Below the pieces are notes generated by a model, which did no database searches, was not told the origin of the DNA, and saw only the letters and a list, made by a program, of their open reading frames with translations. A DNA stretch of 64,000 bases, from positions 2,890-66,889 of the forward strand of contig JAVHRY010000138.1 of the NCBI GenBank assembly GCA_036171915.1, read 5' to 3'. The position numbers and the translations under genes are program-made. This document shows positions 8,631 to 63,573 of the stretch, piece by piece (within the stretch, counting starts at the first letter, position 1; every line of letters begins with the position of its first letter). The stretch comes from Elusimicrobiales bacterium. GTDB taxonomy: Bacteria > Elusimicrobiota > Elusimicrobia > Elusimicrobiales > UBA9959.

Positions 8631-8709
8631 AAAGCGCTCCGCCGCCTTTTGGGGAACCGCGCCGCGGCGCTCAAAAGGCCCAGGCACAGATCAGGCCTGT
8701 TGCCGGGCC

Positions 8710-29052: not shown

Positions 29053-29093
29053 CCTATTGCTCTCATTAGGCAATTTTCAAGAAGAATAAAACG

Positions 29094-29906: not shown

Positions 29907-29908
29907 CC

Positions 29909-31447: not shown

Positions 31448-31500
31448 AAGACCATCTCCTGCCTTGAAACTCTTCCCGCTTTGCCCCTTCCGGTTGACGC

Positions 31501-34778: not shown

Positions 34779-37700
34779 TCAAGGGCCGATGTACAAAACG
34801 TATGTCTTGCCGTCCCCGGAACCGACCATCAGAGTAAAGGTGGTGAAAGGGTCTATAACCAGGTCCGCGCGCACAGGGCCGCCGGTAGCCACCGGCCAAC
34901 CGTCGCGCAACTGGCCGGTATTGGCGTCCACGGCGTAAATATTGCCGTCATCGCAGCCGAAGTACGCGTAATCCTGCCAGACCCCGGCGATCATGCCGGA
35001 ACTAACGACCACCGGTGAAGACCTTATGGCCCCGCCGGCGCGGAAAAGAAGCCCGCCGGTTCCCGAAGACGCATTCACTTTGTAAAGTCCGCCGGCGTCG
35101 TTGCCGAAGAACACGTACGTGTTCCCGTCGGCGAGAGCCGAGAGGAACGGCGACGTGCGGATAGGCGCACCGGAATTAAAATCCGACCAGTGCGGGGGCA
35201 GCGTCGTAAGGTTGGCCGAGGTCCTGGCGTAGAGCTTTTTGTCCGTAGAGGTGACATACAGGTTGTTCCCGCCCAGGTAGGCCGCCTCCGCGTACGGCGA
35301 GGACTGGATGGCCCCGCCTGTCTGCAAAGTGCTAGTCACAACGCCGTCCGAAGTCCTGAAGCGCAAGACATTACCGTCCATAAGGCCCGCCCAGGAAGCG
35401 TTCACGCCCGGGGTACGGTCGTCCAGCGCCAGCGTGCCGGAAACGGCGGCCGTGAACCCGGCGTCGTAAGTCCAGCCGGCGCAGTCGGAGCCGTCGCCTT
35501 TATTAAGACAGTAGACCCTGGCATCGGAAGCGCCGAGGTAGAGTTTATCTCCCGAATCCACCAGGTTTGAATCCACCGGCACGCCGAGCTGCCGCTTCCA
35601 GACCTGCTGGGCGGAGAAATTATTGTCGCGCAGTTTGTAGACGTCGCCGTTGCCGGCGGCAAAATACAGGTAGACGCCGGCGGACTCCACCAGCATCAGG
35701 GGACTGGTTTTAACAGGCGCCAGCGGGGAAGTCTTGAAAGTCCACTTGGGGTTGCCGGCGGCCGTCACGGCGCGCAGGTTCCCGTCGAGCGCGGCGATAT
35801 ACACCGAGGGCGTTATAGAAGGCGCCCCGTCTCCGTCGTAGTAATCAAGCAGAGAAACTATCCCGGCCTGCGCCCCAGCGTCATAAGGCCACGAAGTGCC
35901 CGCCGGCGGCGCCGCCGGCACTATAATGGTGGTGGAATCAGTCTGCACGGCCGCGCCGTAGGCGAAAGCCTGCGGCTCCGCGCTGGGCGAGTCGCGCAGG
36001 ACCACGCCGGCCGCGGGATCCAGACTTACCCGGAAAGTGTTCGGGGCCTGGGTGGAGGCGTACTGCGCGGCCTCAAAAACCACATAGTAGGCGGCGGTGG
36101 AAGCGGCCTGGGTCTGCGCGGCGGCGGGCACGGCTACGGACAAGGTCAGCGCGCCGGACCCGTCCAGCGTTATATCCGGGTTCTGCAGAGAAACGGCCAC
36201 CTGCTCGTCGATGCCGGATTCGTAAACTCCGCTCAAGCCCACGGCTGAATCCTTCACTAGGGAAATGCTCCGGAACAGGTTCCTGGCCTCTGCGGTGCTG
36301 AGAGGGGCAATAAGGTCGGCGCTGGAGATCCGGACCGTGATGCTGGCAAGTTCGACCGAATTGTAGCCGGCCGGGCTGTTGTTCTGCACGTCCAGCCGCA
36401 CCACGGCCGCCGCCGCCTGCTCGCCGAGGCGCTGCGGCGCCGCTGCCGCGGCGTTGACCGCGTGGACGGAGGCATCGTAGGTGAGGCCCGCGCGCTCTGT
36501 CTGCCGGGCGGAAACGGATCCCGTGTCGCTGTTCAATATCAGTTTATATAAGGCGCCGTTCACGAGCGGCCTGCCATCCTGGTCCTGGAAAGACATACCG
36601 TACTGTGAAGTGGCCTGCTCGGCCATTGTATCGGCCAGGTTGAAGCCGATGTTTTCCAACCTGTAGATATGCGGGGAATAAGGGTCGGCCGTACCGCCGG
36701 TGCGCGTAAAGACCATATTATTCCCGGTACCCCAGGTAGACGCGGCCCCGAGGGTCAGGCGCAGCGGGAAGCGCGCCGGCAGTATCTGGGAGGCGGCGGG
36801 GTAAGAGAGGGCGTTCGCCGCGGCCAGGCCCGCGCCGTTATTGCGCGAGGCCGGGGTGGAGGAGGCCTCTACCGCGAAATCGGCGGAATTATAGCCGGTA
36901 TCGGAACCTTCCGCCGGAGTTCTGCCTATGGAGTAGGAGGCGTTGGCCGGCGCCCAGTCCGCGGCGCTGACCAGGGCGGCTTTATAATCGCGCAGGGAAT
37001 AGGCGGCCCCCGATTGCCAGACCACGCGGTCCACCGCCTGACCGGCGGCGTTTTCCAGCACCACGAAGTCCCCGGCGGCGGACAGGCCGGACGGACCGAA
37101 CACGGAAGCGTACGGCAGCGCCTCGTCGCTTACCGCCGACTGGTCGATGAGCGCGTAAGAGCCGGCGTAGATCTTGCGGGTGAAACGGAACCTCCCGTTA
37201 TAAGAACCGCGCAGGGAATAACCGGCAAGCGTAGGCGAGGAGGTCCCCTTGTTATAGAGTTCGATAAACTGCCCGGCCGGCGCGCCGTAGGAAATTTCAT
37301 TTATCTTCACGGGGTCCGTGGCTATAGCGTTGGCGTAGCCCGGAGTTGGCGTCGGGTCGGCGTCGAAATAATCGGCGTTGCCGTCCGTTATCCTGGCGAA
37401 AGACCTGCCGGAGGACAGCGCCGGCCACTGCACGCGGTCCACCACGTTGCCGCCAGCGTCCTTAAGTATCACGTGGTAGCTCTGCGCGCCGTTCAGGTTA
37501 TAGGACGGTACGATGAGGAAAGCAGCGTTGACGCTGCTCCTGTCCACCGCGGCCCCTGTCCAGGCCGTCACCTCAAGGCCGGGCAGAGCTATAGTCCCCT
37601 GATCGTAAACCAGCTTCCAGCCGGCCAGAGAGAAGGTAGAGGCGGTATTGTTGTATAGCTCTACCCAGTCGTCAGCGGCCGCAGCCCCGGACGGGTAAAC

Positions 37701-40700
37701 CTCGTTTATGTACACGTTCGATATCTGCGGCTGCGCCGCGGCCTGGTTGGAGAGGGCGGAAATATTCCCGGCCTTGTCGCCGGTTTTTACGGCGAAATAA
37801 TAGGTCTTGCCCGTATCCAGGCCGTACAGCACGCGCGCCTCGGGCTGGCCGGCCGCGGCCGGGCTCCAGGCCTGCGCGTAGGTGCTGGCCGCGCTGAACA
37901 GCGCGTCGGTGGTGATCTGGAACGTGGCGGACTTCACTACATAGTAACCGCCGTTATCATCTCCGGCGGCGCCGTCGTCCCCGGGGGCGGCCCAGGACAG
38001 CTGCACGGAGCCGCGCACCGGGCCGGCGGCCGCGGCGAGGCCGGCTATGGCAGCGGGCGGCTGCGTATCTTTCAGCACCTTGAAAGCGTCCACCAGCGTA
38101 GTGGTGCTGAAAGCGTTGTCGATGGCGCGCACGCTTATATAGTTGGTGCCGTTCCCGAGCAGGGCGAAGCTGAGCGCCCAGTTGGCCTGCGAAAGGGACC
38201 CCAGGGTACCGGAAGAAATAACCGTCCAGTCCAGGGTCTGGATGCCGGTCTGCGAGGGCCCGCTGGAGGCTGAGTATTCCAGGCTCCTCAGCTGCGAACC
38301 TCCCACGTCGGCGAAGTCCACGTCGTAACCGGGCCCCTGGTCCGAATTGTGCCACGCGGAATCGTACCCGGCGTCCAGGTTATTGGTGATGGTCGGGGGC
38401 ACGGTATCCTTTTGGACGTTGAAAGCGTCCAGGATATAAGAAGAATAATTCCCGGCATTGTCGCGCGCCCGGACGGCCACGTAATTCTGGCCCTGCGGCA
38501 GCAGGTCGAAGGTACCCTGGGTAAGCGGCCAGTCGGCGGAATAGGAATCGGAGTTGATGCCGGAGACCTGGTCGGTCCAATCCTGCAGCAGCGTGCCGCC
38601 GCCGCCGGCCTGCGAGAAGATCCTGGTCTGGATGGACGCCAGGTGCGACCCGCCAGGATCCGTGGCGTCTATATTATAAGCAACGCGCGTATTGCACCAG
38701 TTGTCATCCCCCGGCTGGTTGTCTATGACCGTGGGCGGCACCGGGTCCTGCCTGTCGAAGGCCAGCGCCGCGGACTCGTGGTTGAAGTCGGACAGCGTCG
38801 TCGTGTGCTGGAAATTGGAGGAAGCGGTGGTGCCGGCCCAGGCCGAACCTCCCCACAGGGTGGTCTTAAGTATGCCCAGGGTATCGATGCCCATAGCCGT
38901 TATCTTGCTGGTATTAGGGTCGGGAACAAGCGCCAGCCAGTTTATATTCCCGGCGAAAGTGGTATTAGTGTTTACCGTAGCGCCCGAAAGCGTGGCCGGG
39001 GTCCAGGCGCCGTTAAGCCAGGTAGCGTAAGTCAGGCGCGTAGGATTGGCGGAGGTGACGGCCGCGGTCATGAACTTGCCGGACTGCGCCTCCCAGGCGG
39101 CGTCGGCGATGCGCGAGGCGTTGGCGCGCCCGGTGCCGGAAGTCGGTAGGGCCGACCAGGCCTCCACGGTAAGCGTAGGCCGCCAGATAGCCGCTGCCCA
39201 GGTGGAGGAGCCGTTTATGGAAGTCATTCCAAGGCGGTTCGTAGTAGGGTCGGCCGCCAGCCTGAGCCAGTTGCCGGCCGCGGCGATGGCCGGCCCGGTC
39301 TTGACGGTTTCCCAGGCCGCGGAAGTGGAACGCCAGATACGGTAGTTGGTGGTAACGCCGGTGCCCCAGAGCGCCAGCGCGTTGCCCGTCAGGGATTCCC
39401 AGTCGCCGTCGAAGCATTCCTCGGTGGCTATGGAAGCGGCGGTGGTGAGGTTCTGGTTGGACACCCAGGCGGAGCCGTTCCAGACGGCCGCGGTGATGTC
39501 GGAATTGGCGTCCAGCGCCATCAGCAGGATGCGGTTGGTGCCCGGCATGGGCTTCAGGCGCACCCAGTTGATAACCCCGGTTAGCGAGGCAAGCGGCAGC
39601 GAGGCCGGCGGCGCCACCCAGGCGGAAGAGGTGGCCGACCAGACCGCGTAGGTTACGGCGCCGGCGGCGCCGTTATAGTAGGCGGCCAGCATCCTGCCTG
39701 AAAGATTCTCTGGCGCCAGGTCGAACTTGCGCGTGGCCGAGCCGCCCGGAGCTGGCGCCGGAGAAGGCGTGACATCGGTCCAGGAGGAGTTTAGGCCGTC
39801 CCAGTTCAGGAACTTCAGGCTGTTGTCCGAAGCGAGGAAGCCGCCCAGTTTCGAGTTGGCCACCACGGACACGGATTTAAGTTCGGTCCAGAGCACATTG
39901 GCTGCCGTGGCCGCGGCATCCGTTTCGGCGTGCCAGGTTTCAGGAGTCCAGCTGCGGTATTTTGGGATAGTGGAAGCCCCCGAGCCGTAAACTATCATGC
40001 CGGCGGCCGCGCCCGCCGGAGTGGCGCTGGAGGTGGGCACGTTGGAAATGGCCCCCGCATTCCCCATCTCATCCACAGCTTTTATAGCGATAGAGTAGGT
40101 GGTGCCGGGAACTAGCCCGTCCATCACGCGGCTCTCGGCCTGGCCGTAGGCCAGAGGGATCCATTCCTGCGTGAAGGTGGAAACCGCGGGCGCGCTGAAA
40201 TTACCAGCGGTTATAAGCGCTGTAGAGTAGCGGACTATATAAGAGGTCGCCGTCCCGGCATTGGTAAAGCCTTTGACTCCTTCTCCCGGAGCTGTCCAGG
40301 CAAGCGCTATCTGGCCCTGGAAATCGGCCATGGCCGCGGAGAGGTCGGAGATGGCGCCGGGCGGGGTTTGGTCCACGCCTGCGTAGGTGGAGGTCATATT
40401 ACTGAGCGGCCCCATGTTACCGGCTTTGTCTACGCCCTCTACGGCGATATAATAGGTGACGCCCGCGGTAAGACCGCTCATGGTAAGCCCTTCCAGCGAA
40501 CCGGCGGCTTTCGGAGCCAGCGTGGATACGTACACCGAAGCGGCGTCAAAAGCGGCCTGATCGGCGAAGGCGTCGGTCCCATAGCGTATCAGGTAGTAGC
40601 TGGCATTGCCGATAAGCGCGTTATCCCCGGGAGCGTTCCATCTGGCGTACAGGTCGCCTTCGCCGGCCGGGCCGGTCTTGGCGAGGGAGGCCAGCGTGGT

Positions 40701-58700: not shown

Positions 58701-61700
58701 GGAAATATAATTTATCCCTTCGGCCAGCGCCGGCCAGGAAGAAACGGAGATCCCCCAGGGGCCGGGGTAGGAAGAAAGGTTGGCCGGGCCCGAAGAGATG
58801 AAGGTCCAGTCGATCTTTTTAACCCCGGTCTGCCCGGCCCCGGGATATGCCGTGTACTGGATGCTGTCCAGCTTCGAGCCGCCGGCGTCGGCGAAAGCGA
58901 CGTTGTAGATGCCGCCCGGGTTGGCGTTGCGCCAGGCGTCGTCCCCGGCCTGCGCGTCGGTGATAACGACCGGCACGGTATCCTTCAGCACGTAGAACAG
59001 GTCGTTGACGGAAGTGGAGGAGTTATTGACATTGTCGAAAACGCGCACGCTGACGTAACCGGTGGTGCCGCTGGGGATATTGTCCCAGACCGCGGTCGGC
59101 AGGGCCCAGGCCGAACCGTAGCCGGCGGAGTTTATGCCGGTCGCCACGCTGGTCCAGTCGGAAAGCAAAGTCCCGGTCTGCGAAGGGCCGGAGGTAACCT
59201 TGACCTGGAAATAGGACAAAAGCGAACCGCCAGCGTCGTTGAAGGTTATGTTGTACAGGCCGTTATTGGAATTGCGCCAGCGCGTATCCCCGGCCTGGCC
59301 ATCCGTTATTGTCGGGGTAGACAGGTCCACCAGCAGGGAACGGTAGGCGCTGAAAGCCGAGACGTTCCCCGCCGTGTCGTTCGACGCCGCGCGCCAGTAA
59401 TAAGTAGTCTGCGCGGCCAGCGGCACGAACGCCGCCGAGACCGCCGGCTGGCTGGAATACGAGATGGTGGTAAAATCAGTGGAAGTGGCCAATTGAAGCA
59501 GGTAATTGGCGGTGCGAGAAGCGCTATCGGCCGAGTCGCCCCAGTCGAAAGCCAGGTTAGCCAGGTTGGTCTTGTAGCCGTCGGCCGGTGAAATAAGCGA
59601 GGGAACTGCGGGCGGGGTGGTGTCCTTCAATATCCGGAAAGCGTCGACAACGCTTGTGGTATTACCGGCCACGTCGTAGAATTCCACGCTGATATAGTTG
59701 GTATTGTCGCCGCCCAGGCTGGCGAAAGCCACGGGCCAATCCGCGGTGTAGGCGGCGCCGGTCACCCCGGCTATGGTGGTGGAGGCTACCAGTACCGGCG
59801 GGGTCCCGCCGGGATTGGCGCGCGCCGCGTACTTGGCCCCGGCCAGGCGGGAGGCGCCGTCGGAGAAGTCGAAGTTGTAATTCCTGCCGGTATTGCGCCA
59901 GACGGAATCCCCGCCGGCCTCGCCGTTGACGTAAGCCGGCGGCGTGGTGTCCTTGAGCACCTTGAAAGCGTCGGTGATGGTGGTGGTATTGCCGGCGATG
60001 TCGTACAGTTCGATGGAAATATAGTTGGTAGCGTCGCCGGCCAGCCCGGCGAAGTTCAGCGCCCAGTCCGTGGCATAGGAAGCGCCGGACACGCCGGGGA
60101 TGGCGGTGGTGGAGATTTGCATGGCCCCGGCCCCGCCCGCCGCGGTCCGCGCCGCGTAAACCGCCCCGGCCAGCCTGGAATAGGGATCGGCGAAATCCAC
60201 GTTGTAGCTCTTTCCGATATTGCGCCAGACAAGGTCTCCCCCCGCCTCCCCGTTAGTGAAAGTGGGGGCCACGGTATCTTTCAGCACCTTGAAAGCGTCC
60301 GAAAGCGTTACGGTGTTAGAGGAGTAATCCACGGCCCGCACCGAGATATAGTTGGTGGTCCAGCTGGCGAGGCTGGTCCAGAAACCGGCTGGCAGGGCCC
60401 AGTCCGTATAATAATAGGTGGCGTTCACGTTTAATACGGCGTCCACCCAGCCGCCGCCGAAGTCCGTGCCGGTCTGGCCCGTGCCGGAAGTGGCGCGCAC
60501 CTGGAACTTGGAGATCAGCGAGCCGCCGGCGTCGTCGAAGTCCACGTTGTAAACGCCGTTATTAGTATTGCGCCACACCTGGTCCCCAGTCCCCATCCTG
60601 CCGGTGATGACCGGCGTGGAAAGGTCCACCCTGAAAGCGCGCGTGGCCGACCACAGGCCGGTATTGCCGGCGTTGTCCAGCGCGCGCACGCGCCAGAAAT
60701 ACGGGTTCTGCGCCAGGCCCGCCGGCGCGGCCGCGGCGGCCAGCGGGGCGGAACTGAAGGTAACGGTTGTAAAATCTGCCGCGGTCGCCAGCTGCACCTC
60801 GTAATTCTTCAGGCCGGACCCGTCGATGTCGGCAACCGCTTCCCAGCTCAGCGCCGGGGAACCGTTGTTGAGGTTGGCGTTATTTACCGGCAGGATGGCG
60901 GCCATGGCCGGGGCGGGAGGGCTGGAATAGTCCACGCCGAAGGAAGGGGCGGCAAAGTTTATCCAGCCGCCGCGGCCGCCGTCGCCCAGCGCCGCCACAC
61001 GCCATTTATACTGGCTGCCGGAAGTGATATTTGCCGAGCTGAGGTTTACGGTCAGCGGGCTGCCGCCGTAAACGCTGAAGCCGCCGGTAGAAAGGCCTAT
61101 GCCGTCGAAGGCCGACGCGTTAGGCTTGATCTCCGCCACAAGCGCCAAATTATCCGCGTTCATGGAACTGGCCAGCACGCCCTCGAAGGTGATAGCGCGG
61201 TTATTTGTCCAGCCCCCGGTAGTTAATCCCGAGCCGCCGGCATACTGCGCAGGACTTACCGGCAATTTGGGGTAGGGCACAAAAGTGTAGGTCACCCCCA
61301 CGCGGCCCCCCAGCACGCTATTGGCGCTGCCGGCATAATTCACCTTCACCAGGGTAGTGGTGCTGGTGACGGGCGACATGTTCTGGTAGAACCTCGAAAT
61401 AGTGGTGGTTTCTGTAATAGAGCGGTGATTAACGGTCTGCGGGCCGTTGCCGTTGAAATTCACCGTATCAGTGAAGGCAGCGCCGCCCGTGGAAAGCACG
61501 TTGGCGTAGACATAGGTCCCGCGCATGGTGTCGGTGCCGTACGCCTCGGGGTGATAAAGACCGACGTAGGAAGTGTATGCCTTGGCCGTATTTACTGTAT
61601 TGGAGCCGGCAAGCGCTTCGTAGTACGTGGTATGGGCGGCTTCGTTGGCGGAAGTGTAGGTTATTATCAGCTCGCCGCCCGGCGCCCCGGAAGCCGCGTT

Positions 61701-62990
61701 GGCAGTAACCGTGGTATCCACCGTGCTGCCGTTGGTCCAAGAACCGGCGGCTGAAGTTAGAGAATGAATGAACTCATAGCCGCTGACCTGGCTGGCCTGC
61801 GACCTCACCATGTAGCTCTGAGTGGGGACCGCGGTAGAATTCACGTTTGACCCGACAGGAAGGGCCGTGGCCGTGGCGCTGTTAAAAGTGCCGACTATGC
61901 GGTTGTATATTTCCTTGATGGTAATGCCCTCTTCGCGCAGGTATATGGGCTGGGAGAATACCGCGGTAGTAAGGGCTGCCGCGCCCTGCCCCAGGTAATA
62001 GCGGACCGTCCGCAGCTGCGTGGCGGCCGCGGCGTCCGCCTCATAGGTTATAACAACCTCGCCGCCAAGCGTGGCGATGGGGCTCTGCACGGTAACCAGG
62101 TTGACGGTCTGCAGCGTATTGGCCGCGAACCCGGCGACCACAGTAGACGAAGAAAGATAGGTGAACTGGTACGAACTCTGCAGGCTGCCTTCCAGATAGG
62201 CGGTAGGCTCGGCGGCCGAGACCCCGATCTTGGCATAGATCTGGCCGTCCGTATTGGAAGCGTTGCTCTGCCTGAACCCGCGCACTTCGAACCACTGCTG
62301 CTGGATGGCGCTCAGGTCCGGCAGGTCGGCCTGGTACTGCATGGCGTGGGTGCCCGCGTTCTGTATGGCCGCAAAAGCGGCTATTTTATTGGAGTAATCG
62401 GAATACAGCGGGAAACGCACCGTCTTTACCTGTATGGGGGAAATTACCGGGTCGTCCTCGTACTCATAGGTTATATACAGCTTCATCACCTGGGTATTGC
62501 AGGTGGCCCCTGTCAGGGTAACTGCGCCGGTAAACACCTGCCCGGCGGTAAGGGTTCCCGCCGCCACCGCGGCGGTAACGTCGGCCCTGGCAAAAACTTT
62601 TATGGACTCGCCGCTGTTCGTGGTATAGGCCCCCGAGGTAAAGCGCGCCGTGGTGGCCGTGGCTCCGGCGTTGAAATAAACGTTCAGCGCGGTGATGGCG
62701 GCGGCCGAAGTAACGCCTTCGAACTCCAGCCAGGCGCTCCTGACGGTTTTGCCGCCCTCGGGCAATTTTACGGTCTGGGATTTAAAAGTAAATTTGGCGG
62801 CGGACGCAATGTTGGCCGTAGCGTACCTGCCGCCGAAATTATATTCTACCGTCTTTATGCGGGTTTCGGCTTGCGCCTGGGGCGCGGAAAGGAGCATGGA
62901 GAAGAACAGCAATAACGGGGCAAAAGAAAGGCCGCGCAGGCTTAAGCCGCGTTTTACGCCTCCTTTCTTTTTATCGCTCCGGAATTTCAT
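34779..62990 (-). CDS. giant secreted repeat protein (9,403 aa); function unknown, surface fibre/adhesin-like
   Basis: One uninterrupted ATG-to-TGA frame of 28,212 nt with an N-terminal Sec signal peptide. It is modular, with extracellular-type composition throughout (see sub-features). Antisense and other-frame ORFs inside it are short and R/G/P-rich, as expected for GC-rich non-coding frames. Confidence 0.9.
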   Translation of the reverse strand: MKFRSDKKKGGVKRGLSLRGLSFAPLLLFFSMLLSAPQAQAETRIKTVEYNFGGRYATANIASAAKFTFKSQTVKLPEGGKTVRSAWLEFEGVTSAAAITALNVYFNAGATATTARFTSGAYTTNSGESIKVFARADVTAAVAAGTLTAGQVFTGAVTLTGATCNTQVMKLYITYEYEDDPVISPIQVKTVRFPLYSDYSNKIAAFAAIQNAGTHAMQYQADLPDLSAIQQQWFEVRGFRQSNASNTDGQIYAKIGVSAAEPTAYLEGSLQSSYQFTYLSSSTVVAGFAANTLQTVNLVTVQSPIATLGGEVVITYEADAAAATQLRTVRYYLGQGAAALTTAVFSQPIYLREEGITIKEIYNRIVGTFNSATATALPVGSNVNSTAVPTQSYMVRSQASQVSGYEFIHSLTSAAGSWTNGSTVDTTVTANAASGAPGGELIITYTSANEAAHTTYYEALAGSNTVNTAKAYTSYVGLYHPEAYGTDTMRGTYVYANVLSTGGAAFTDTVNFNGNGPQTVNHRSITETTTISRFYQNMSPVTSTTTLVKVNYAGSANSVLGGRVGVTYTFVPYPKLPVSPAQYAGGSGLTTGGWTNNRAITFEGVLASSMNADNLALVAEIKPNASAFDGIGLSTGGFSVYGGSPLTVNLSSANITSGSQYKWRVAALGDGGRGGWINFAAPSFGVDYSSPPAPAMAAILPVNNANLNNGSPALSWEAVADIDGSGLKNYEVQLATAADFTTVTFSSAPLAAAAAPAGLAQNPYFWRVRALDNAGNTGLWSATRAFRVDLSTPVITGRMGTGDQVWRNTNNGVYNVDFDDAGGSLISKFQVRATSGTGQTGTDFGGGWVDAVLNVNATYYYTDWALPAGFWTSLASWTTNYISVRAVDYSSNTVTLSDAFKVLKDTVAPTFTNGEAGGDLVWRNIGKSYNVDFADPYSRLAGAVYAARTAAGGAGAMQISTTAIPGVSGASYATDWALNFAGLAGDATNYISIELYDIAGNTTTITDAFKVLKDTTPPAYVNGEAGGDSVWRNTGRNYNFDFSDGASRLAGAKYAARANPGGTPPVLVASTTIAGVTGAAYTADWPVAFASLGGDNTNYISVEFYDVAGNTTSVVDAFRILKDTTPPAVPSLISPADGYKTNLANLAFDWGDSADSASRTANYLLQLATSTDFTTISYSSQPAVSAAFVPLAAQTTYYWRAASNDTAGNVSAFSAYRSLLVDLSTPTITDGQAGDTRWRNSNNGLYNITFNDAGGSLLSYFQVKVTSGPSQTGTLLSDWTSVATGINSAGYGSAWALPTAVWDNIPSGTTGYVSVRVFDNVNNSSTSVNDLFYVLKDTVPVVITDAQAGDDAWRNANPGGIYNVAFADAGGSKLDSIQYTAYPGAGQTGVKKIDWTFISSGPANLSSYPGPWGISVSSWPALAEGINYISVRAWDVAGTTTALNDVFYVYKDTTAPYAQNLQAGGDAAWQKDPGKLYDVKFYDTGGSLLNTVEYSVWSEPGQKGTPRKGWNPIAAPPLGAASYTSPWSVDFAALAEGAATNYVSVRFTDLAGNTSTYADAFYISKDKTLPVVADNQFGDDNWRNSSGTVYAVGFTDAGGSLLSNFEIKITTGSGQTGTLVQDWAVQQGSINSASYPGPWKLTQAQWNALPAGISYVSVRVNDNAANQQGKDDVFYILKDTSAPSVTDSQPGDANWRDANTGVYNVSFADIGGSLLSGFQVKAATGPAQTGTLAADWTDAVTGIDAVSYPGGWQLPAPVWSLLRSGTNYISVRAMDYAGSTTALSDVFYVLKDTSVPVITDGQSGDNTWRRFGGTTYTVSFGDADSGLASVSYEAWSGPGLTGTNPVTPTVIPGAAGPSFAAPWTVDFNLLAQGTNYISVAAVDGLGHSASLPDVFYVLKDNVSPTITDNQAGDNTWHNSDPGAVYNVDFGDLTAGLTTAQYRITSLPAQSGTVIRDWTNIVSAPAGVAAYTANWGVDFLAIPSGTTGYVSVRAYDKADNPAQVNDAFYVLKDTVAPSIVIVSTPTKGFGPYSVNPAAIFNVDFFDGGGSGIAAPQYMVSTSPAGAGTPVKDWTNIATLAGATYYTQNWDVDFYALELLPATNYFSVRATDLAGNTSTYLDAFKVFRTTHPISIIVNQSGDSVWRTSDNGFYNVDFESNDPGVDLSSFSIQAWTQPGRTGVMTADFTKAGDLPGQSYYADWALPAGFYNSLYETTNYITVRAWNVAGTSMTLEDVFYVKKDTTPPAISDLQNGDDVWRSAAGSVYNVDFADAGSRLTQAQYRISTGTLQTGILIKDWTDIFTTPAGQASYTTNWPVDFAALQSWTSGYVSVRAYDQAGLSSSRNDVFYVRKDTTPPVFANNQPAASAYLSGNTGLYNVDFTDPGQESGLLRYQLRASTHTGNYAPYLLDWTDSGNLSGGSYTADWPLQADIWDSIPSGVTAYISVKVFDAALLSSSTYDAFTVWKDTAQPEVVVNQAGDDIWRLTDPGAVYDVDFRDLESGAATAQYRLYSQPGQAGALLKDWTDIFNIPGGTKSYTANWGVDLASAVEGPNYVTVRVFDRGGLSANAQDAFYVLKDTTPPVIVNNQAGDNAWQGSPGAAYNVDFFDRASGLSTLQYRVSTAPALAYPISAWQTVDVLTGYPTYYTDNWSVLFSTLAENVTNYISVRAYDQRNLVSVSSDVFRVFKDVTMPTIADNQPGDDAWRNSSGTLYNVGFADAGGSLLDKFQVRLVSGQNQLGTVIADWTDVAFGINSSAYPGPWTLTYGLWSALPEGQTYVSVRAYDKAGNDRETSDVFYVRKDVTPPVINNYQGGDGAWRSANSAVYDVRFADAGGSLLDQVQVKITTGTGQTGTVLADWTPVLTGLNAASASAPWPLTAGLWDAIRSGVTAYVSVAALDNAGSSSTLTDAFYVLKDTVPPAVNNSQAGDSVWRNSDSGGYSVAFTDLGGSLLSKVQLKASTGTAGTGASAFGWTDNVTGLDSSSYPGPLAMAPGLWQLLLPGTNYISLRVYDNAGAYADLGDAFYVLKDTQNPSGAVSPPAYTGSLNFSVPYSAADAGPAGVQYVKLYYTYATQVPYAWTQFGSTFNFSPIAFTAPSGGAAGFRLIVYDKAGNRDETDPPGTDTAPEAVTSVDLTAPSVVKNLTGDAAWRNSPGTLYNVDFSAAGGSLLSAAQYKVTSAGSQGGAVLKDWTNIAVNINAADYTADWPVDFSALKSSFNYVSVRAWNLAGTTTTANDVFYIKKDTEAPLFANNQPGDNNWRSSDPGAVYNVGFTDGFSLLSKAQYSASSAPGTASGDLVGWTDIAAGISAPAYANPWGVDFSALNSGATAYISARAYDLAGNAAVSTDVFYVLKDTVPPAAANNQAGDNVWRPANTGVYNVHFDDAGGSRLSKAQYNIWSSTGRAGTEIAAWTDISPSPSGLNSYVTDWALSAGSFALLAPGTNYVSVRVIDYAGSTTTLEDAFYVRKDQAGPAIINNQTGDNTWRAANTGLYDTDFSDLLSGLGSFQVKVTTGLNQSGTVLSDWTQGSALSGQVYTPNWALPAAVFTAMREGVNYVSVRALDSVANSSTLNDAFYVYKDTTGPSITNNQAGDNTWRGANTGVYNVDLADDKSLAAKLQVKAMTGPGQTGALVFDWTDAVTGINAASYTTDWALPPGLWPLLAQNTNYISVRAYDMGGSTSSLTDAFYVRKDTVPADAVSALAGVKGAEGQIAVSWTAPDDGGAAAVGYVVKVSSYINVSGANFDTADTYAQAWVPVAPGFPESYNLTGLEPDTLFYIAVKSVDKAGNLSGVSNTASAVSGPDATPPGAITDLAAQHGGFDGQVSLSWTAVGDNGVSIGTATAYQVRYRTDQTIATPGLWDSASVYDQAWVPQYPGVTEAQGIDGLTAGTTYYWAVKAVDDAGNTSALSNSPGAYAAVGGGTGGNIMYGVGTTNIPMVNTWAPPSFGTANNGATTSALATSVMRHIITRASPLRNEKMAGILSSDGVLQIQRYNGRQGTWTNEWSATDITAANSAYRGFDIAYEQNSGRAVVLYNSSTNGQLKYNIYDGSSWTGVQTVAAGDPARAALWVRLEARPKADELMAAFSNATSSRLTAMHWSGSAWDNTTQIVPSLGLTTYQNFDLAWESLSGRCLISYGGTAVTGKVITQIWTVSSWALFNSTEFTFIGANGNANWVRLAADPNSNYIGATAIDSGRDWNAAIWDGSGWYPSATENANAARNANQARTIDAAWESKSGKFIVASAARFTNTVLYSYWSPAGGWATTLAAAYSVGNWTGLVNGVQLEPDSKTNAVMLTAWSASSDLRSAAWSGSVFTLNPVAHTTTLSANTYMPAMLAIHRHDIVPPTVTDNQPGDDAWRGANTGVYNIDAADTGGSHLRGIQTKIYSGPNQTGQLLEDWTTQVSTSGVDSYTPDWPLGAGTWAAMKEGYNYVAVRSTDGSDNVSLNPVTDAFYVKKDTTPPTVPALLLPADGAFLKNPVVYFDWGNSSDLASGVNNYELQVATSVDFTTPVYSASPSVSESTSAVLPSALYYWRARAADLVGNGSAYTSAYTVLVDTVLPVTVNGQSGDNAWRNASGTAYAVGFTDAGGSLLDSAGYSVYSSTGRTGAQLVPFAAGPIASGIASPSYAAPWSLSPANWALLQNGTNYVSVQSYDRAGNLTVTNDVFYIRKDAQAPVITDNQPGGDSWLASAGTLYNVDFADAGGSLLDRFQLKITSGPNQSGTVLANWFDRVTGINAVSYTDDFALGASTWAALPEGQSYVSVRAYDGAGNVSLLNDVFYVRKDTSAPSAVAPVSPASGTITNNANVTFDWSDASDSGSGVYGYEVYVATSSDFAVVYSSALKTLSQYSQTMASGGYYWRARALDNAGNYGNYSSTWAVRVDTAPPSVQNNQAADNAWHSSNPGAVYNVAFADTGGSHIESLEYSAWSGPGLTGANATPWTIITSTPLGADAYGAAWGVNFGLLGDGTNFISVRVWDAAGSTVTAPDVFYVKKDVYAPNIVDNQPGDDAWRAVPGAQFDVDFQDTGASLLSNFQLKIMSGPNQTGGLISNWFDRAAGLNAAAYTDNFDLGISTWLNLPQGVSYVSARVYDNAGNSAALDDVFYIKKDTTPPGITDSQSGDDAWRASNTGLYDVSFADSGGSKLSYFQVKAATGAAQTGLVTADWTTVAAGIGADLYPGGWALPASVFDSLASGLNYISVRAYDNAGLSSALSDVFYVRKSTAAPRVADNQAGDDTWRSAPGTLYNVHFEDAGASGLSAAQYKVTSLPGQNGTLIKDWTYIASNINSPAYNSDWSVAFSALAENGTNYVSVRVWDVSGATTTASDVFYVKKDITAPSIANGQSGDDTWRSVNNGAYNVHFADAGGSALSRFEVKLTTGPAQTGTLVADWYAPVSGINANAYPYDWALAASTFTALPEGVGRVSLRVYDNAGNMSEQDDAFYVKKDTTPPSAPSLLSPSDLAPAATLGPLFDWSDSSDGSSGIYGYSLEVSTAAGFAPPAYSAAPSVSQQTGALSAGTTYYWRVKAADNAGNYSGYSSSFRVIADTVPPVITDYQSGEAFWRNSGGGATYNVTFADNLTGLDTMEYSAWSGPGQTGANSLAWTLISSGTPRLAYSVPWGVNFALLGAGTNYISARAWDVAGSTAVRADLFTVLKDTYGPDIINNQAGDAVWRAANPGAVYDVDFRDLYSGVATIQYRVNSLPAQGGATLVDWSDLASGLNVQLYGANWGLSAANWNLLAQGTNYVSVRVYDRLGQLTTLPDAFYINKDTTAPTVADNQANIPLAASQADVDAVNVTFADTGGSLLSKAQYSAWTAPGRAGGEIIPWTDIAANINAPAYTAAWPVNYLALPNLATSYISVRAYDLAGNTTYYNDALSIYKEGSGPSIINGQAGDNAWRNLNDGLYNVDFQSESGYNLNYFQVTAATSAAAPAYLVAWTSAAWNIGSTAYSANWALPQAVFDALAPGKNYISLRVYDLQPSFSVLNNAFYVLKDTSPPSLGLNQGGDTAWQGAAGKAYNVSFYDALSGLATAQYRITSQPAQGGAVLKDWTDIASPGGAASYTAPWPADFAALQEWATGYVTVRAFDLLAQSSAAADAFYILKDTTPPSAVAAVSPADKAAYSTATAAFDWTDASDLRSGAAGYVLEASLYQDFSSVYASSVTAVSQASLANVADGNYYWRARAFDRAGNYSADMATRAFTVDTSSPLISNNQVSPTAWLVADPGAVFNVDFRDLTSGVTTAQYRVTSAPAGAGTVLKDWTDLLSSTGTLYAPADWALDFAALAEGLNYVSVRAFDRVALSSAAADAFVVRKDTSAPSVTVVQAGDNVWRRTSGTLYDVNFEDLGAGLATAQYRITSQPAGGGSVLKDWTVIFTAAGAASYPADWPVDFFTLAETATNYVSVRAYDMLGSSRTANDAFYILKDITNPAIQDNQPDDNVWRAADPGPVYNVGFTDLGGSKIDRFQTRITSGPAGTGTVIRDWTDRLTVNATYYSLPWGPDFSTLNEGPNYVSVRVYDNAGNSAQQADVYSVRKDTTPPSVLNGQAGDNVWRSANTGLYSVHFQDAGGSGMDYFQVKATTDAAAHGTPLFDWTTLASGINAQSYTADWQLTSQMWSLLSSGTSYISVRAWDGAGSSSATVGAFYIRKDTQAVSLTDNQTGDDAWRSLNNGLYKISAAALGGSPLDRFEVRSSTLPGNLGPFTSGWTAAVTGLNAYAYSTDWPLPAAAFNAMLSGYYNYVSVRAYNQAGFYAELPDVFYVFKDTVAPQVANNAAGGDLAWRNGPGTVYNINLADAGGSLLSGLEVRASTNAGTGPYLFNWTVIQAGINSGSLTGGFALPASSFTLLMENVTNYISLRAYDVAGNTSTVVDAFFVLKDTTPPALAGSQAGDSYWRRSSGTVYNVTFTDTGGSRLSKVQLRASPNSGTLGPWYFDWSDALTGINSDSYASGLPVPQGLWDLLGEGTNYISVQVWDAAGSTFAYGVQPFFILKDTTTPFFANGEAGGDAAWLNAGRNYNLDFNDAMSGLAAFEYSASTAQASADGGVKGWTTIAAPGGGLSYTADWPVDFAALREGVTNYISVRAWDIAGSTAVLKDAFFIKKDTTPPTAVSSQAGEFSWRNSNGGAYSVSFGDTGGSRISRFQLKASTGPGGTGITAFDWTDNITAINANTYSVPWPLSLGIWNGLADSATNYVSVRVWDNAGSSYTITDAFRVLKDTTAPSIYDNQAGSDTWRDVSGSLYDVDFADGGSGVSSAAYAAWTGPGQTGSPVKGWTQIFAAPTAAYTADWPVDFNNLAPGLNYISVRAWDAAGNQAEAGDVFYVKKDTAAPVITDLQNGDTTWYRLNPGPVFNIDFADASIGVSSAAYEAWAGPGHTGGQVLPSTPIFSGPPMSSYTQDWGVYGADWLLLPPGTSYITVTAWDALGHSSAAVDVFYILKDTVPPSAITTLASLAKTGPAGEGDLYARWNAPGDNALIGNASYYLIRYGTDAFADQAAFDAASVYVSTLAPKAAGSLEGLTMSGLTAGVTYYIAVEGVDKAGNMGPLSNMTSTYAGVDQTPPGAISDLSAAMADFQGQIALAWTAPGEGVKGFTNAGTATSYIVRYSTALITAGNFSAPAVSTFTQEWIPLAYGQAESRVMDGLVPGTTYSIAIKAVDEMGNAGAISNVPTSSATPAGAAAGMIVYGSGASTIPKYRSWTPETWHAETDAAATAANVLWTELKSVSVVANSKLGGFLASDNSLKFLNWDGLNSSWTDVTPSPAPAPGGSATRKFDLAPENLSGRMLAAYYNGAAGAVTYAVWSATSSAWVAPPASLPLASLTGVINWVRLKPMPGTNRILLMALDANSDITAAVWNGSAWVSNQNLTTAASIATEECFDGDWESLTGNALALWGTGVTTNYRIWRSTSAAWETVKTGPAIAAAGNWLRLAADPTTNRLGMTSINGSSTWAAAIWRPTLTVEAWSALPTSGTGRANASRIADAAWEAQSGKFMTAAVTSANPTRLTYATWLNGAWTPATLSGATVNTNTTFAGNINWLALVPDPNTSKITAMGIDTLGILKTTLWGGSAWAGTTASSNFQHTTTLSDFNHESAALAFDRQDPVPPTVIDNQPGDDNWCNTRVAYNIDATDPGGSHLASIQTRIFSQAGGGGTLLQDWTDQVSGINSDSYSADWPLTQGTFDLLPQGQNYVAVRARDNAGNYSSYILDAFNVQKDTVPPTITNNLDAGYDSAWHNSDQGPGYDVDFADVGGSQLRSLEYSASSGPSQTGIQTLDWTVISSGTLGSLSQANWALSFALLGNGTNYISVRAIDNAFSTTTLVDAFKVLKDTQPPAAIAGLAAAAGPVRGSVQLSWAAPGDDGAAGDDNGGYYVVKSATFQITTDALFSAASTYAQAWSPAAAGQPEARVLYGLDTGKTYYFAVKTGDKAGNISALSNQAAAQPQISNVYINEVYPSGAAAADDWVELYNNTASTFSLAGWKLVYDQGTIALPGLEVTAWTGAAVDRSSVNAAFLIVPSYNLNGAQSYHVILKDAGGNVVDRVQWPALSSGRSFARITDGNADYFDADPTPTPGYANAIATDPVKINEISYGAPAGQFIELYNKGTSSPTLAGYSLRGSYNGRFRFTRKIYAGSYALIDQSAVSDEALPYASVFGPSGLSAAGDFVVLENAAGQAVDRVVWQSGAAYSLRDYKAALVSAADWAPANASYSIGRTPAEGSDTGYNSADFAVEASSTPASRNNGAGLAAANALSYPAASQILPARFPLRLTLGAASTWGTGNNMVFTRTGGTADPYSPHIYRLENIGFNLADTMAEQATSQYGMSFQDQDGRPLVNGALYKLILNSDTGSVSARQTERAGLTYDASVHAVNAAAAAPQRLGEQAAAAVVRLDVQNNSPAGYNSVELASITVRISSADLIAPLSTAEARNLFRSISLVKDSAVGLSGVYESGIDEQVAVSLQNPDITLDGSGALTLSVAVPAAAQTQAASTAAYYVVFEAAQYASTQAPNTFRVSLDPAAGVVLRDSPSAEPQAFAYGAAVQTDSTTIIVPAAPPAGTSWPYDAGAQAGIVSLLDYYDGDGAPSITPSVYIAALDGNLRAVTAAGNPKWTFKTSPLAPVKTSPLMLVESAGVYLYFAAGNGDVYKLRDNNFSAQQVWKRQLGVPVDSNLVDSGDKLYLGASDARVYCLNKGDGSDCAGWTYDAGFTAAVSGTLALDDRTPGVNASWAGLMDGNVLRFRTSDGVVTSTLQTGGAIQSSPYAEAAYLGGNNLYVTSTDKKLYARTSANLTTLPPHWSDFNSGAPIRTSPFLSALADGNTYVFFGNDAGGLYKVNASSGTGGLLFRAGGAIRSSPVVVSSGMIAGVWQDYAYFGCDDGNIYAVDANTGQLRDGWPVATGGPVRADLVIDPFTTFTLMVGSGDGKTYVLYIGP
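34782..35810 (-). other. C-terminal PQQ-like beta-propeller of the giant protein
   Basis: Blade-like units are GNLRAVTAAGNPKWTF, GDVYKLRDNN...QVWKRQL, ARVYCLNKGDGSDCAGW, KKLYARTSAN, GGLYKVNASSG and GNIYAVDANTGQLRDGW. The protein ends ...GDGKTYVLYIGP with no CTD-like tail. Confidence 0.6.
36825..37725 (-). other. two tandem lamin-tail domains (LTD) in the giant protein
   Basis: VYINEVYPSGAAAADDWVELYNNTASTFSLAGWKL... and VKINEISYGAPAGQFIELYNKGTSSPTLAGYSLR... fit the LTD opening pattern INE(V/I)....(D/G).(W/F)(V/I)ELYN.....(L/F)..(W/Y).L. Later strands are also present (GDFVVLENAAGQAVDRVVW / HVILKDAGGNVVDRVQW). Confidence 0.7.
38064..38728 (-). repeat. giant protein repeat array 3: two further copies of the ~110-aa module
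   Basis: IDNQPGDDNWCN...AFNVQKDTVPPTI and TNNLDAGYDSAWHN...AFKVLKDTQPPAA. Confidence 0.75.
38728..40010 (-). other. ~427-aa Trp-rich blade-repeat module B (paralogue of module A)
   Basis: It runs from GMIVYGSGASTIPKYRSWTPETW... to ...FDRQDPVPPTV. It has the same unit pattern as module A (WVRLKPMPGTNRILLMALDANSDITAAVWNGSAW; WLRLAADPTTNRLGMTSINGSSTWAAAIW; WLALVPDPNTSKITAMGIDTLGILKTTLWGGSAW). Confidence 0.55.
40010..40718 (-). other. FN3 pair B of the giant protein
   Basis: ...GDLYARWNAPGDN...YLIRYGT...LTAGVTYYIAVEGVDKAGNMG... and ...GQIALAWTAPGEG...YIVRYST...LVPGTTYSIAIKAVDEMGNAG... Confidence 0.7.
40719..49975 (-). repeat. giant protein repeat array 2: ~24 copies of the ~110-aa module with four interspersed FN3-like (FDW.D..D..SG...Y.L.V...DF......YYWR..A.D.AGN) inserts
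   Basis: Manual parse as for array 1. The FN3-like inserts follow copies 25, 27, 32 and 37 in my numbering. Confidence 0.8.
49975..51250 (-). other. ~425-aa Trp-rich blade-repeat module A (candidate beta-propeller/lectin-like; unassigned)
   Basis: It runs from GNIMYGVGTTNIPMVNTWAPP... to ...AIHRHDIVPPTV. Internal recurring units are W(V/L)RL(E/A)(A/P).P......(A/M)......D(L/W).AA.W.GS.W. Confidence 0.55.
51250..51923 (-). other. FN3 pair A of the giant protein
   Basis: ...GQIAVSWTAPDDGG...YVVKVS...LEPDTLFYIAVKSVDKAGNLS... and ...GQVSLSWTAVGDNG...YQVRYRT...LTAGTTYYWAVKAVDDAGNTS... Confidence 0.7.
51924..60630 (-). repeat. giant protein repeat array 1: ~24 copies of the ~110-aa module (plus one FN3-like and one Ig-like insert)
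   Basis: I parsed the translation by hand. Modules are delimited by D(A/V)FYV(L/R/K)KDT(T/V)(P/A)P and contain NQ(A/P)GD..WR....G.YNVDF.D.GGS.LS..Q.K...G..QTG....DWT......(S/A)Y...W.L.......L..G.NY(I/V)SVRA.D.AGN. On the + strand this shows as recurring tccttcagcacgtagaa(a/c)(a/g)cgtc-like strings about every 330-340 nt. Confidence 0.8.
61270..62867 (-). other. N-terminal region of the giant protein: four paralogous ~130-145-aa modules
   Basis: Each module opens with (K/R)TV(E/R)(Y/F) and closes with GG..(I/V)(I/V)TY(E/T): ...QVMKLYITYEYEDD; ...LGGEVVITYEADAAA; ...PGGELIITYTSANE; ...LGGRVGVTYTFVPYP. Boundaries are approximate. Confidence 0.5.
62868..62990 (-). other. signal peptide of the giant protein (aa 1-41)
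   Basis: MKFRSDKKKGGVKRGLSLRGLSFAPLLLFFSMLLSAPQAQA|ETR: a strongly basic n-region, a hydrophobic core and an AQA-E cleavage-type site. Confidence 0.75.
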
Positions 62991-63004: not shown

Positions 63005-63445
63005 CTATTCTTCAGCCGCGCCGCCCTGGTCTTTAAACTTGCCCGGTTTTTTTTCTTCTTTGCGCCGTTCCTCTTCCTTCATCATTTCCACTATGTCCTG
63101 CACGGTCAGGCCGACCAGCCAGTGGTTAACCTCCCCGCGCAGCGTCTCGTAAAGTTTTATGGAAACTTCTTTTTTAGAGGCGTCCGGGGCGCCGTTGAAG
63201 GTAAAGGCCTCCATCAGCTGCCACACGCTTATATCGTCCAGGTCCTTGCGCAGGCGGTAGCCCTTGCCCTTCTGCGATTCCACAAAACCGGCGTGCACCA
63301 GCGCCTGCAGCACCTTGTTGCAGTACGGCGCCGGCAAGCCCTGGAAACGGGAAATCTCCGCCACCTGGTTCCAGGAACCGCCATTGTTCTGCCCAAGGTA
63401 ATGCAGGCAGGCCAGGCCGTAAGCTAAGGTGCGGTTCATCTTCAT
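63005..63445 (-). CDS. Rrf2 family transcriptional regulator
   Basis: Start is set at ATG 63445 (MKMNRTLAYGLACLHYLGQNNGGSWNQVAEISRFQGLPAPYCNKVLQALVHAGFVESQKGKGYRL), a winged-HTH typical of Rrf2/BadM. No three-Cys Fe-S ligand cluster is visible. It has an acidic/basic tail (EEERRKEEKK). Its stop is 14 nt upstream of the giant-gene ATG. Confidence 0.8.
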   Translation of the reverse strand: MKMNRTLAYGLACLHYLGQNNGGSWNQVAEISRFQGLPAPYCNKVLQALVHAGFVESQKGKGYRLRKDLDDISVWQLMEAFTFNGAPDASKKEVSIKLYETLRGEVNHWLVGLTVQDIVEMMKEEERRKEEKKPGKFKDQGGAAEE

Positions 63446-63495
63446 AAAATTATCATAAAAAGGTTTTTTTCCTAAGTTCAGTCCAGCAAACAACA

Positions 63496-63522
63496 GCCAT
63501 TGGATACTTTCTATCCAATGGC
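63496..63522. promoter_or_regulatory. perfect palindrome GCCATTGGATA-N5-TATCCAATGGC; candidate Rrf2 operator
   Basis: The 11-bp arms at 63496..63506 and 63512..63522 are exact reverse complements. It lies between the candidate promoter (63574..63601) and the Rrf2 start (63445). Confidence 0.35.
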
Positions 63523-63573
63523 ATCCCAAAAAATCGGGCGGCTTAAGACAACAGAGCCGTCCTTGATATCAAT

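Follow-up and report, generated by a model that had tools for sequence, protein, structure and literature searches.

A 9,403-residue Sec-exported protein from an Elusimicrobiales bacterium: a giant member of an unnamed family and a candidate glycan-binding surface fibre

A single uninterrupted open reading frame (ORF) of 28,212 nt fills positions 34779 to 62990 on the minus strand of a 64,000-nt stretch of DNA from an Elusimicrobiales bacterium (GenBank assembly GCA_036171915.1, contig JAVHRY010000138.1, positions 2,890 to 66,889), and the whole of this stretch is called the window below. The ORF starts with ATG and encodes 9,403 amino acids (aa), and its translation contains one stop, which is terminal. 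The initial annotation had described one 28.2-kb frame from ATG to stop, which the ORF listing and the translation confirm, and the strand, unstated there, can now be added. After removal of the signal peptide, the giant protein has a computed mass of ~984 kDa and an isoelectric point (pI) of 4.4. It clearly belongs to an unnamed family without a characterised member, and it may form a long surface fibre held at the outer membrane by the products of the two genes that follow.

The giant gene product is exported by the Sec pathway. Its signal peptide (aa 1–41; 62868 to 62990, minus strand, as are all parts of the giant gene) has the sequence MKFRSDKKKGGVKRGLSLRGLSFAPLLLFFSMLLSAPQAQA and is followed by ETR. 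Its n-region is basic and its core hydrophobic, and an AQA motif places cleavage between AQA and E. The mature N-terminus, TRIKTVEY, is conserved directly past the cleavage site in all 12 aligned homologs. In the AlphaFold2 (AF2) model, residues 1–39 have a predicted local distance difference test (pLDDT) score below 50 with a helix at residues 24–33, and the first strand begins at residue 42. The 41-aa signal proposed in the initial annotation is thus upheld by the AQA motif and by homolog conservation that starts directly after the site. The lack of a later hydrophobic anchor is also borne out, as the best 19-aa Kyte-Doolittle window in the rest of the protein reaches 1.29 against 1.77 in the signal peptide. 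The composition count agrees with the earlier description of a protein rich in A, T, G, S, D, N, W, and Y and poor in Cys: alanine makes up 14.1%, glycine and serine 9.5% each, threonine 9.1%, aspartate 6.8%, asparagine 5.8%, tyrosine 5.1%, and tryptophan 2.9%, valine is also among the rich residues, and there are only 7 Cys (0.07%).

Pfam and NCBIfam show no enzymatic domain in the giant protein and no feature of non-ribosomal peptide or polyketide synthases, as the first reading had held. The same libraries and motif scans found no type IX secretion system (T9SS) C-terminal domain (CTD), LPXTG, PEP-CTERM, or lipobox signal. A nonapeptide array of the RTX type is absent, with a single isolated match at aa 6555 that was judged to be chance. 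There is no Pfam or NCBIfam match to the terminal beta-barrels of autotransporters (type V secretion, intimin/invasin); the termini are jelly-roll sandwiches at the N-terminal end and a propeller at the C-terminal end. The giant protein is not T9SS cargo, because it has no CTD and its PQQ-like propeller reaches the last residue. Joining of the giant ORF and the next ORF by a frameshift into one CTD-bearing protein was considered and rejected, since the following gene carries an ATG and a signal peptide of its own; the apparent overlap of that ORF with the giant 3' end is a spurious TTG extension, and its ATG lies past the giant stop.

Head: The family-defining module lies directly after the signal peptide (aa 42–690; 60921 to 62867). 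Its AF2 model is all-beta (pLDDT 80, predicted template modelling score (pTM) 0.83), and the homolog alignment shows four units of ~130–150 aa, which are jelly-roll beta-sandwiches each closing with an ITYEY-like strand, and then a further beta domain. The head has no match in Pfam, even at relaxed cut-offs, or among PDB sequences. Foldseek returned likeness at the level of domains only, to reelin repeats, Cry1A protoxin domains, PNGase F, and the carbohydrate-binding domains of BcsB, with template modelling (TM) scores of 0.10–0.14; against viral models it returned phage tail proteins, and the head searches gave TM scores of at most 0.17 on the query. Specific homology of the head to phage tail proteins, reelin, or Cry protoxin was discarded, as these are generic multi-sandwich matches with low TM scores. 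The head module (~600 aa) is also found internally, in at least three copies, in other giant proteins. Among them is P0085 (7,591 aa), whose composition suggests a bacterium of the Candidate Phyla Radiation (CPR) and whose record carries no source name. Proteins of 1,211 aa that were binned to Actinomycetota (P0004) carry the module in duplicate. Because of these internal and multiple copies, the head is more than an N-terminal cap and counts as a mobile module.

Ig-like arrays: Self-comparison of the giant protein gave a period of 113 aa, and a hidden Markov model (HMM) built from the repeats gave 61 matches, 56 of them above 50 bits, in three arrays. Array 1 has ~27 units of ~112 aa (aa 764–3759; 51714 to 60701), array 2 has ~28 units (aa 4324–7472; 40575 to 50021), and array 3 has ~3 units (aa 8071–8379; 37854 to 38780), the last of which grades into a fibronectin type III (fn3) domain. 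The repeat consensus is KDTTPPsItnNQAGDdaWRnanggvYNVdFaDaGGS.L...Q.k...GPGQTG....DWT......n...Y...W.L......L..GTNYvSVRAyDnAGN. The repeat is predicted to be an immunoglobulin (Ig)-like beta-sandwich, as whole-protein summed scores exceed the cutoffs of Ig_Rha78A_N, Big_3_3, Glucodextran_B, and OmpL47 barrel. When 41 repeats were scanned singly against Pfam, in contrast, at most three matched any one Ig-like family (Big_3_3, Big_13, Ig_Rha78A_N, or OmpL47 barrel), with a best E-value of 0.0035 and none past the cutoff, and the repeat profile found nothing meaningful among PDB sequences. Pfam and NCBIfam detected none of the calcium-binding BIg, Cadherin, or VCBS families in the giant protein. 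The repeats share a mean of 37% identity with each other, whereas each shares 75–76% with its orthologous repeat, so each unit is old and individually conserved. A faint excess of similarity at a lag of 28 units reflects the ancient doubling of a supermodule, which comprised ~28 units together with an insert.

Internal propellers: Insert 1 separates arrays 1 and 2 (aa 3760–4323; 50022 to 51713) and consists of two fn3 domains and a seven-bladed propeller (propeller 1, aa 3915–4323; 50022 to 51248). Insert 2 (aa 7473–8070; 38781 to 40574) is its paralog with 30–45% identity and has the same plan of two fn3 domains and a seven-bladed propeller. The seven blades are of ~52 aa each and carry a WxGSxW motif in both inserts, and the fn3 domains score 45–55 bits against a Pfam cutoff of 25. 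The AF2 model of propeller 1 has a seven-bladed fold (pLDDT 83, pTM 0.88), and its top Foldseek matches are the Photorhabdus lectins PHL, PLL, PLL2, and PLL3 (E-values of 7e-11 to 1e-8, TM scores of 0.65–0.69 on the target), with BP39L, fungal fucose lectins, sialidases, and WD40 proteins at lower ranks. By sequence, insert 1 with its flanks (aa 3671–4337) found nothing meaningful in the PDB, and the internal propeller had no match in Pfam at relaxed cut-offs. Its sequence relatives (query aa 3915–4330) are the C-terminal domains of ~560-aa proteins (P0015–P0030). The N-termini of three of these were inspected and are type IV pilin-like (for example KKYAFALVEVLLGV and KAGFSPVEVLLA), and two carry the JGI label 'PilV'. 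These relatives come from uncultured bacteria that may be CPR-like, and one is named from an 'uncultured bacterium' metagenome-assembled genome (MAG), ACD_11C. Since they have type IV pilin-like N-termini, the propeller module is also displayed on pilus-type proteins, which points to a pilus-displayed, putatively lectin-like domain family that lacks a curated model.

C-terminal region: Array 3 is followed by two lamin-tail domains (LTDs; PF00932, 100.8 bits against a cutoff of 34.3, in two stretches) at aa ~8420–8690 (36921 to 37733). Next comes a neck of ~365 aa (aa 8691–9055; 35826 to 36920), which is kept in short members of the family (P0010, P0012, and P0053) and finds no curated family in Pfam at relaxed cut-offs. 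The protein ends in a PQQ-like propeller (aa 9056–9403; 34782 to 35825; Pfam Beta-prop_ACSF4/PQQ-like), which matches the Cake8–10 designed propellers among PDB sequences with an E-value of 6e-25, and also 3HXJ. The initial annotation had held that the protein is built from modules of no known family. This does not apply to the fn3 domains, the lamin-tail domains, and the PQQ-like propeller, all of which could be placed, nor to the fold of the internal propeller. It does apply, by the sequence searches made, to the head, the 112-aa repeat, and the internal propeller, which are without a curated sequence family.

The gene is real, intact, and under purifying selection. At 0.78, its GC content at third codon positions is no different from that of the window genes lepA and ptsI. 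Internal DNA matches reach 74–80% identity at best, exact repeats extend to 32 nt at most, and because the internal repeats are this old, their collapse or chimerism during assembly is unlikely. A public ortholog (L018/P0042) is colinear with the giant protein, with 76% aa identity over 4,031 aa, and P0042, of 6,986 aa, stops at the end of its sequence. The 2,933 aligned array residues include just 4 gap positions, and the repeat number is conserved between the species. Nei-Gojobori comparison with L018 gave a dN of 0.158, a dS of 0.83, and an omega of ~0.19; taken separately, the head has an omega of 0.30 and the stalk one of 0.16. Identity to the ortholog follows the same parts, at 56% for the head, 65% for propeller 1, 75–76% for the arrays, and 77% for the fn3 pair; the C-terminal region shares 66–71% identity with its closest homolog.

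In five related contigs (L045–L049) the C-terminal part with LTD, neck, and propeller lies in a separate ORF through a stop or frameshift. The break coincides with a 10-N scaffold gap in L047, a GC-rich tract in L049, a T5 run in L046, a deletion between repeated fn3 motifs in L048, and a single C-to-T nonsense change in L045, while the family gene of L017 is unbroken. These breaks are most likely assembly or sequence noise or sporadic mutations, and recurrent inactivation in natural populations may also be their source. A programmed frameshift or a split gene was rejected, as the break sites differ and each has its own cause, be it a gap, a homopolymer or GC-rich tract, or a single mutation.

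The ORF had been singled out as the most likely undescribed element in the window, with a search for homologous giant ORFs as a means of checking it. That search succeeded: giant relatives exist, mostly in Elusimicrobiota and most above 4,000 aa, and with 40 loci holding relatives and the 76%-identical public ortholog the gene is not a unique element. A word-indexed protein search with the head returned 13 proteins, mostly partial, from Elusimicrobiota MAGs, and the head alignment contains 12 homologs at 29–50% identity with 33 invariant columns. In species-representative genomes, the 40 loci with head relatives are almost all from Elusimicrobiota (Elusimicrobiaceae and Endomicrobiia), with a few distant relatives from Firestonebacteria, CPR (Sungbacteria and Saccharibacteria contigs), and archaeal MAGs. 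At these loci 10 kb of sequence after the match was examined, which makes the ORF lengths lower bounds; most of the ORFs extend past it and therefore exceed 4,000 aa, so the giant form is the rule in the clade. These long ORFs contain 25–28 copies of the same 112-aa repeat. A profile search with the head against 1.84 billion representatives gave 908 matches at E-values of 1e-3 or below and 212 at 1e-30 or below, with lengths up to 7,591 aa. The relatives come chiefly from groundwater, cave, and mine MAGs of free-living organisms, and where they have source names these are 'hypothetical protein', 'BamB', or 'PQQ-binding-like beta-propeller repeat protein'.

Short members (P0010, P0012, and P0053; ~1,100 aa) align to the giant protein at aa 41–528 in the head and at aa 8725–9397 in the tail, the latter matching P0010 aa 425–1094 with an E-value of 9e-34. 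As the short members match both giant ends, the family core consists of head, neck, and propeller, and by these alignments the giant gene is this core with an ~8,000-aa insertion between head and neck. Family lengths range from 1,100 to at least 7,000 aa; the other complete members have 1,100–3,074 aa and the rest are cut by contig ends. With 9,403 aa, the giant protein is the longest complete member among those found.

Partner B (1,071 aa; 31501 to 34716, minus strand) is encoded directly downstream of the giant gene and has its own signal peptide. It has a PQQ/BamB-like propeller, an Ig-like domain, ~3 fn3 domains, and a ZU5-like region, together with a CTD of T9SS type A (TIGR04183, 32.5 bits against a cutoff of 23). 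Partner C (29909 to 31504, minus strand) follows and has 531 aa when read from TTG, while its true start may be further downstream. It is an outer-membrane beta-barrel of the PorV/PorQ family (NF033709, 171.2 bits against a cutoff of 90) that falls under the cutoffs of the PorV, PorQ, and PorP/SprF equivalogs (26.6 against 90.55 for PorP/SprF). The barrel has ~500–530 aa in the clade, the family model spans residues 65–362, and an unassigned C-terminal extension of ~170 aa is conserved in orthologs.

Upstream, a gene for an Rrf2-family regulator (rrf2; 63005 to 63529, minus strand) ends 14 nt before the giant ORF, and its true start is probably near 63445, as homolog alignments begin at residue ~28. 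Ahead of it lie a promoter-like TTGACT-16-TATACT (63601 to 63574, minus strand; a match to the sigma-70-like consensus only, 10/12 with TG) and a palindrome, GCCATTGGATA...TATCCAATGGC, whose arms measure 11 bp (63522 to 63496, minus strand); these may be the promoter of the operon and the Rrf2 operator. By tblastn, 14 loci carry rrf2 (55–86% identity) directly upstream of the family gene, 10 loci carry a partner B ortholog directly downstream, including those of short members at L004 and L050, and 6 loci have the barrel downstream of partner B. The order of family gene, partner B, and, where seen, barrel (A-B(-C)) is found at every locus with a visible downstream side, distant short versions included. 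Because the rrf2 adjacency is kept in 14 loci, the fibre is perhaps under Rrf2 control of the redox/Fe-S type. A neighbourhood of HPF, HprK, RapZ, and the mannose-type phosphotransferase system (PTS-Man) is shared by four related contigs, L045, L046, L047, and L049. Transposase genes of the IS200/IS605-type Y1 class are located inside the A-B-C cassette in two relatives (L046, 8427–8876; L048, 12375–13040), in the gap between the giant gene and partner B in one and between partner B and the barrel in the other.

A second cassette is present at 1372–6020 of the window (plus strand) and comprises a 1,209-aa fn3-rich secreted protein and then a barrel of the PorV/PorQ family with 330 aa, which scores 159 bits (cutoff 90). 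The C-terminus of the 1,209-aa protein scores 21.8 bits with TIGR04183, just under the cutoff of 23, and 54 bits to the PorZ C-terminal region. With this cassette in the same window, paired CTD protein and cognate barrel recur in the genome. The 64-kb window contains no SprA/Sov translocon, PorK/L/M/N (GldK/L/M/N), or PorU sortase gene and no pilin or type II secretion system (T2SS) gene, and there are no type I secretion system (T1SS) genes near the giant gene. In the literature searched for T9SS or giant proteins in Elusimicrobia, only a statistical mention and no report of T9SS was found.

The reading that is slightly favoured takes the giant protein for a tethered surface glycan-binding fibre, docked by its C-terminus via partners B and C. 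The product would be a long, thin cell-surface fibre that binds ligands through its head and both internal propellers, with the Ig-like array as a spacer whose length is fixed. A spacing of ~4 nm per domain is typical of Ig-like arrays, and the ~58 Ig-like units and fn3 domains would thus extend to ~0.25 µm. The head is proposed to act as a binding module made of a stack of sandwiches like those of carbohydrate-binding modules (CBMs). Faster divergence is typical of ligand-contact modules, and head and propeller 1 are taken as such modules because both diverge faster than the stalk. These rates support the proposed polarity, with the C-terminus at the cell, together with a division of labour between the parts. 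The C-terminal propeller would be the base and would dock on the propeller protein partner B, which in turn would be held at the outer membrane through its type A CTD by the cognate PorV/PorQ-family barrel. Comparable arrangements are known in Bacteroidota for PorZ, which has two propellers and an uncleaved CTD and is retained by the outer-membrane barrel PorQ (PMC8545088), and for the 669-kDa SprB, which is bound to the barrel SprF (PMC9143113). The initial annotation had called the protein a cell-surface or extracellular fibre or adhesin. The Sec signal, the stalk of ~58 units, the lectin-like propellers, and the operon with CTD protein and barrel all fit this view, and from them surface location, adhesion through glycan binding, fibre polarity, and propeller-to-propeller docking may be inferred.

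Several points weigh against this reading. The main gap is how a CTD-less protein of 1 MDa with no recognisable export signal for the outer membrane would cross it, and T9SS is regarded as specific to Bacteroidota or the Fibrobacteres-Chlorobi-Bacteroidetes (FCB) group (PMC7463736, PMC12398890). The likeness to PLL is at fold level only, with 11–12% identity in structural alignments, and seven-bladed propellers are generic. The head model finds low-TM, domain-level matches only, and the Ig-like assignment draws on weak Pfam and NCBIfam scores that were summed. The polarity has gene adjacency and evolutionary rates as its sources, and expression, localisation, and ligand are all predictions from sequences and models. 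A wider and rather doubtful proposal is that Elusimicrobiota, which lie outside Bacteroidota and the FCB group, use stand-alone pairs of a CTD protein and a PorV/PorQ-like barrel as surface tethers, one of which would serve as the adaptor for a CTD-less megadalton lectin fibre by propeller-propeller contact. If true, the largest protein in the cell would be anchored, and perhaps also exported, in piggy-back fashion, and type IX secretion parts would have a use and a phyletic range that had gone unrecognised.

The giant protein might instead be released to form an extracellular matrix or coat, for instance a biofilm scaffold or a sheath- or S-layer-like mesh, and be shed or self-associating, while the CTD protein and the barrel serve otherwise. 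Its lack of a membrane anchor, lipobox, CTD, LPXTG, or PEP-CTERM signal is in line with release, as are its acidity, low Cys content, and high repetitiveness, and the second, unrelated CTD protein with its PorV/PorQ-like barrel in the window indicates that such pairs can stand alone. However, the A-B(-C) order is kept from 1,100-aa to 9,403-aa members, which argues for a functional link, the strict repeat number across species fits a spacer of defined length better than bulk matrix, and distinct head and base ends are maintained throughout the family, so a released matrix protein is considered unlikely. Another view is that of a contact apparatus for a cell-to-cell lifestyle, aimed at the surface glycans of another cell, be it host, partner, or prey; the object would be physically the same, with a cell as its target in place of an abiotic or polymeric substrate. 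A cell-contact role has been discussed for phyla rich in huge proteins, for example Omnitrophota, and for other small-celled lineages (PMC11573180; bioRxiv 10.1101/2023.11.21.568195). It is quite unlikely here, even though the head and the internal propeller recur in proteins with CPR-suggestive features and distant head relatives occur on contigs of Sungbacteria and Saccharibacteria. By Pfam and NCBIfam, the giant protein has no lytic or peptidase domain and no domain of a toxin or pore-former, unlike the Omnitrophota giants, and the free-living origin of most relatives does not suggest such a lifestyle.

Type II secretion and type IV pilus machinery is abundantly encoded in Elusimicrobia, and it is conceivable that polarity or export differ, with the head proximal to the cell, or with display by a T2SS or type IV pilus and the C-terminal propeller as the distal binder. 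The homology of the internal propeller to domains on type IV pilin-like proteins would agree with this, PQQ-like propellers are themselves capable of ligand binding, and without a CTD the giant protein is no direct T9SS substrate. Such an arrangement is nevertheless improbable, as the head is the fastest-evolving part and the C-terminal region is better kept, the gene for the C-terminal propeller always precedes that of a propeller protein with an outer-membrane tethering signal, and the window holds neither pilin nor T2SS gene. The initial annotation had itself pointed to an assembly artefact with collapsed or chimeric repeats as a possible refutation, and a decaying pseudogene belongs to the same kind of explanation. 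The separate C-terminal ORFs of the five related contigs might seem to favour it, but their breaks have individual causes, and 28,212 nt of open frame, repeats of at most 80% identity with no exact repeat beyond 32 nt, a colinear ortholog, and an omega of ~0.19 make it highly improbable.

The closest comparison is with the Elusimicrobiota members of the same family (P0042, P0010, and P0033), which share the head, neck, C-terminal propeller, and 112-aa repeat with the giant protein, as well as the rrf2-A-B-C order and the neighbourhood of HPF, HprK, RapZ, and PTS. SprB of Flavobacterium johnsoniae is likewise a very large repetitive surface protein encoded beside a CTD-anchoring barrel of the PorV/PorP superfamily, which is FadL-type and has 14 strands (PMC9143113). 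In contrast, SprB has its own type B CTD, while the giant protein has none and the type A CTD is on the separate partner B. Partner C scores in the PorV/PorQ family, under the PorP/SprF threshold, and the giant gene is outside Bacteroidota, the phylum of the SprB/SprF system, and shows no sign of gliding. In the T9SS attachment complex of Porphyromonas gingivalis (PorZ-PorQ and PorU-PorV), PorZ is similar in plan to partner B, with a propeller or propellers and then a CTD, and partner B is encoded beside a PorV/PorQ-family barrel that could keep it at the surface (PMC8545088). The PorZ model matches the CTD region of partner B only, with 18.2 bits against a cutoff of 260, and thus partner B is no PorZ ortholog; its propeller is PQQ/BamB-like and is followed by fn3 and ZU5-like domains.

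PLL/PHL lectins and BP39L are the best structural matches of the internal propellers, and both have seven blades and Trp-rich repeats. PLL lectins are small and soluble, whereas the propellers of the giant protein are embedded in a fibre and match no Pfam or PDB sequence. The giant RTX adhesins secreted by T1SS, such as LapA, SiiE, and MpIBP, have a common logic with the giant protein in the Ig-like spacer array between an anchor end and ligand modules. They differ in that the giant protein has a Sec signal and neither a nonapeptide array nor T1SS genes nearby. The Omnitrophota giants are also predicted extracellular proteins of several thousand residues from uncultured, small-celled lineages (bioRxiv 10.1101/2023.11.21.568195). 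Unlike the giant protein, in which Pfam and NCBIfam detect none of these features, they are described as having beta-helix filaments, dockerins, and cell-wall-degrading domains. The giant protein therefore resembles the class of giant repeat adhesins represented by SprB and the RTX proteins, yet it is a member of none of these systems. The initial annotation had also allowed for a routine member of a characterised adhesin family, and profile searches place the giant protein in none.

In metagenome assemblies, giant proteins usually go missing or are fragmented, and they remain 'hypothetical'. The intact gene reveals the full plan of a family conserved in Elusimicrobiota, in which a head and a base are joined by a spacer that ranges from none to ~58 Ig-like units. 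If the favoured reading is true, the tethered fibre would be a way for small-celled, mostly uncultured bacteria to reach and hold glycan-bearing surfaces or partner cells. It would also mean that three module families are new to Pfam, namely the head, the 112-aa repeat, and the pilin-associated propeller, and that type IX-style tethering by CTD and PorV works beyond the phyla thought to confine that system. If it is only partly right, the gene would still be a well-documented case of a known class, the giant repeat adhesin.

Two further features of the window concern the surroundings of the cassette. A 340-aa minus-strand ORF at 28959–29981 is probably not a gene, as it has no family match and relatives carry a convergent ABC transporter there (ABC_tran and ABC2_membrane), which corresponds in position to the plus-strand ORFs at 28019–28723 and 29094–29906. 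At 9350–13177 (minus strand), the window encodes a 1,275-aa hybrid sensor kinase with five PAS domains, HisKA/HATPase, and three receiver domains, which is unrelated to the giant gene.

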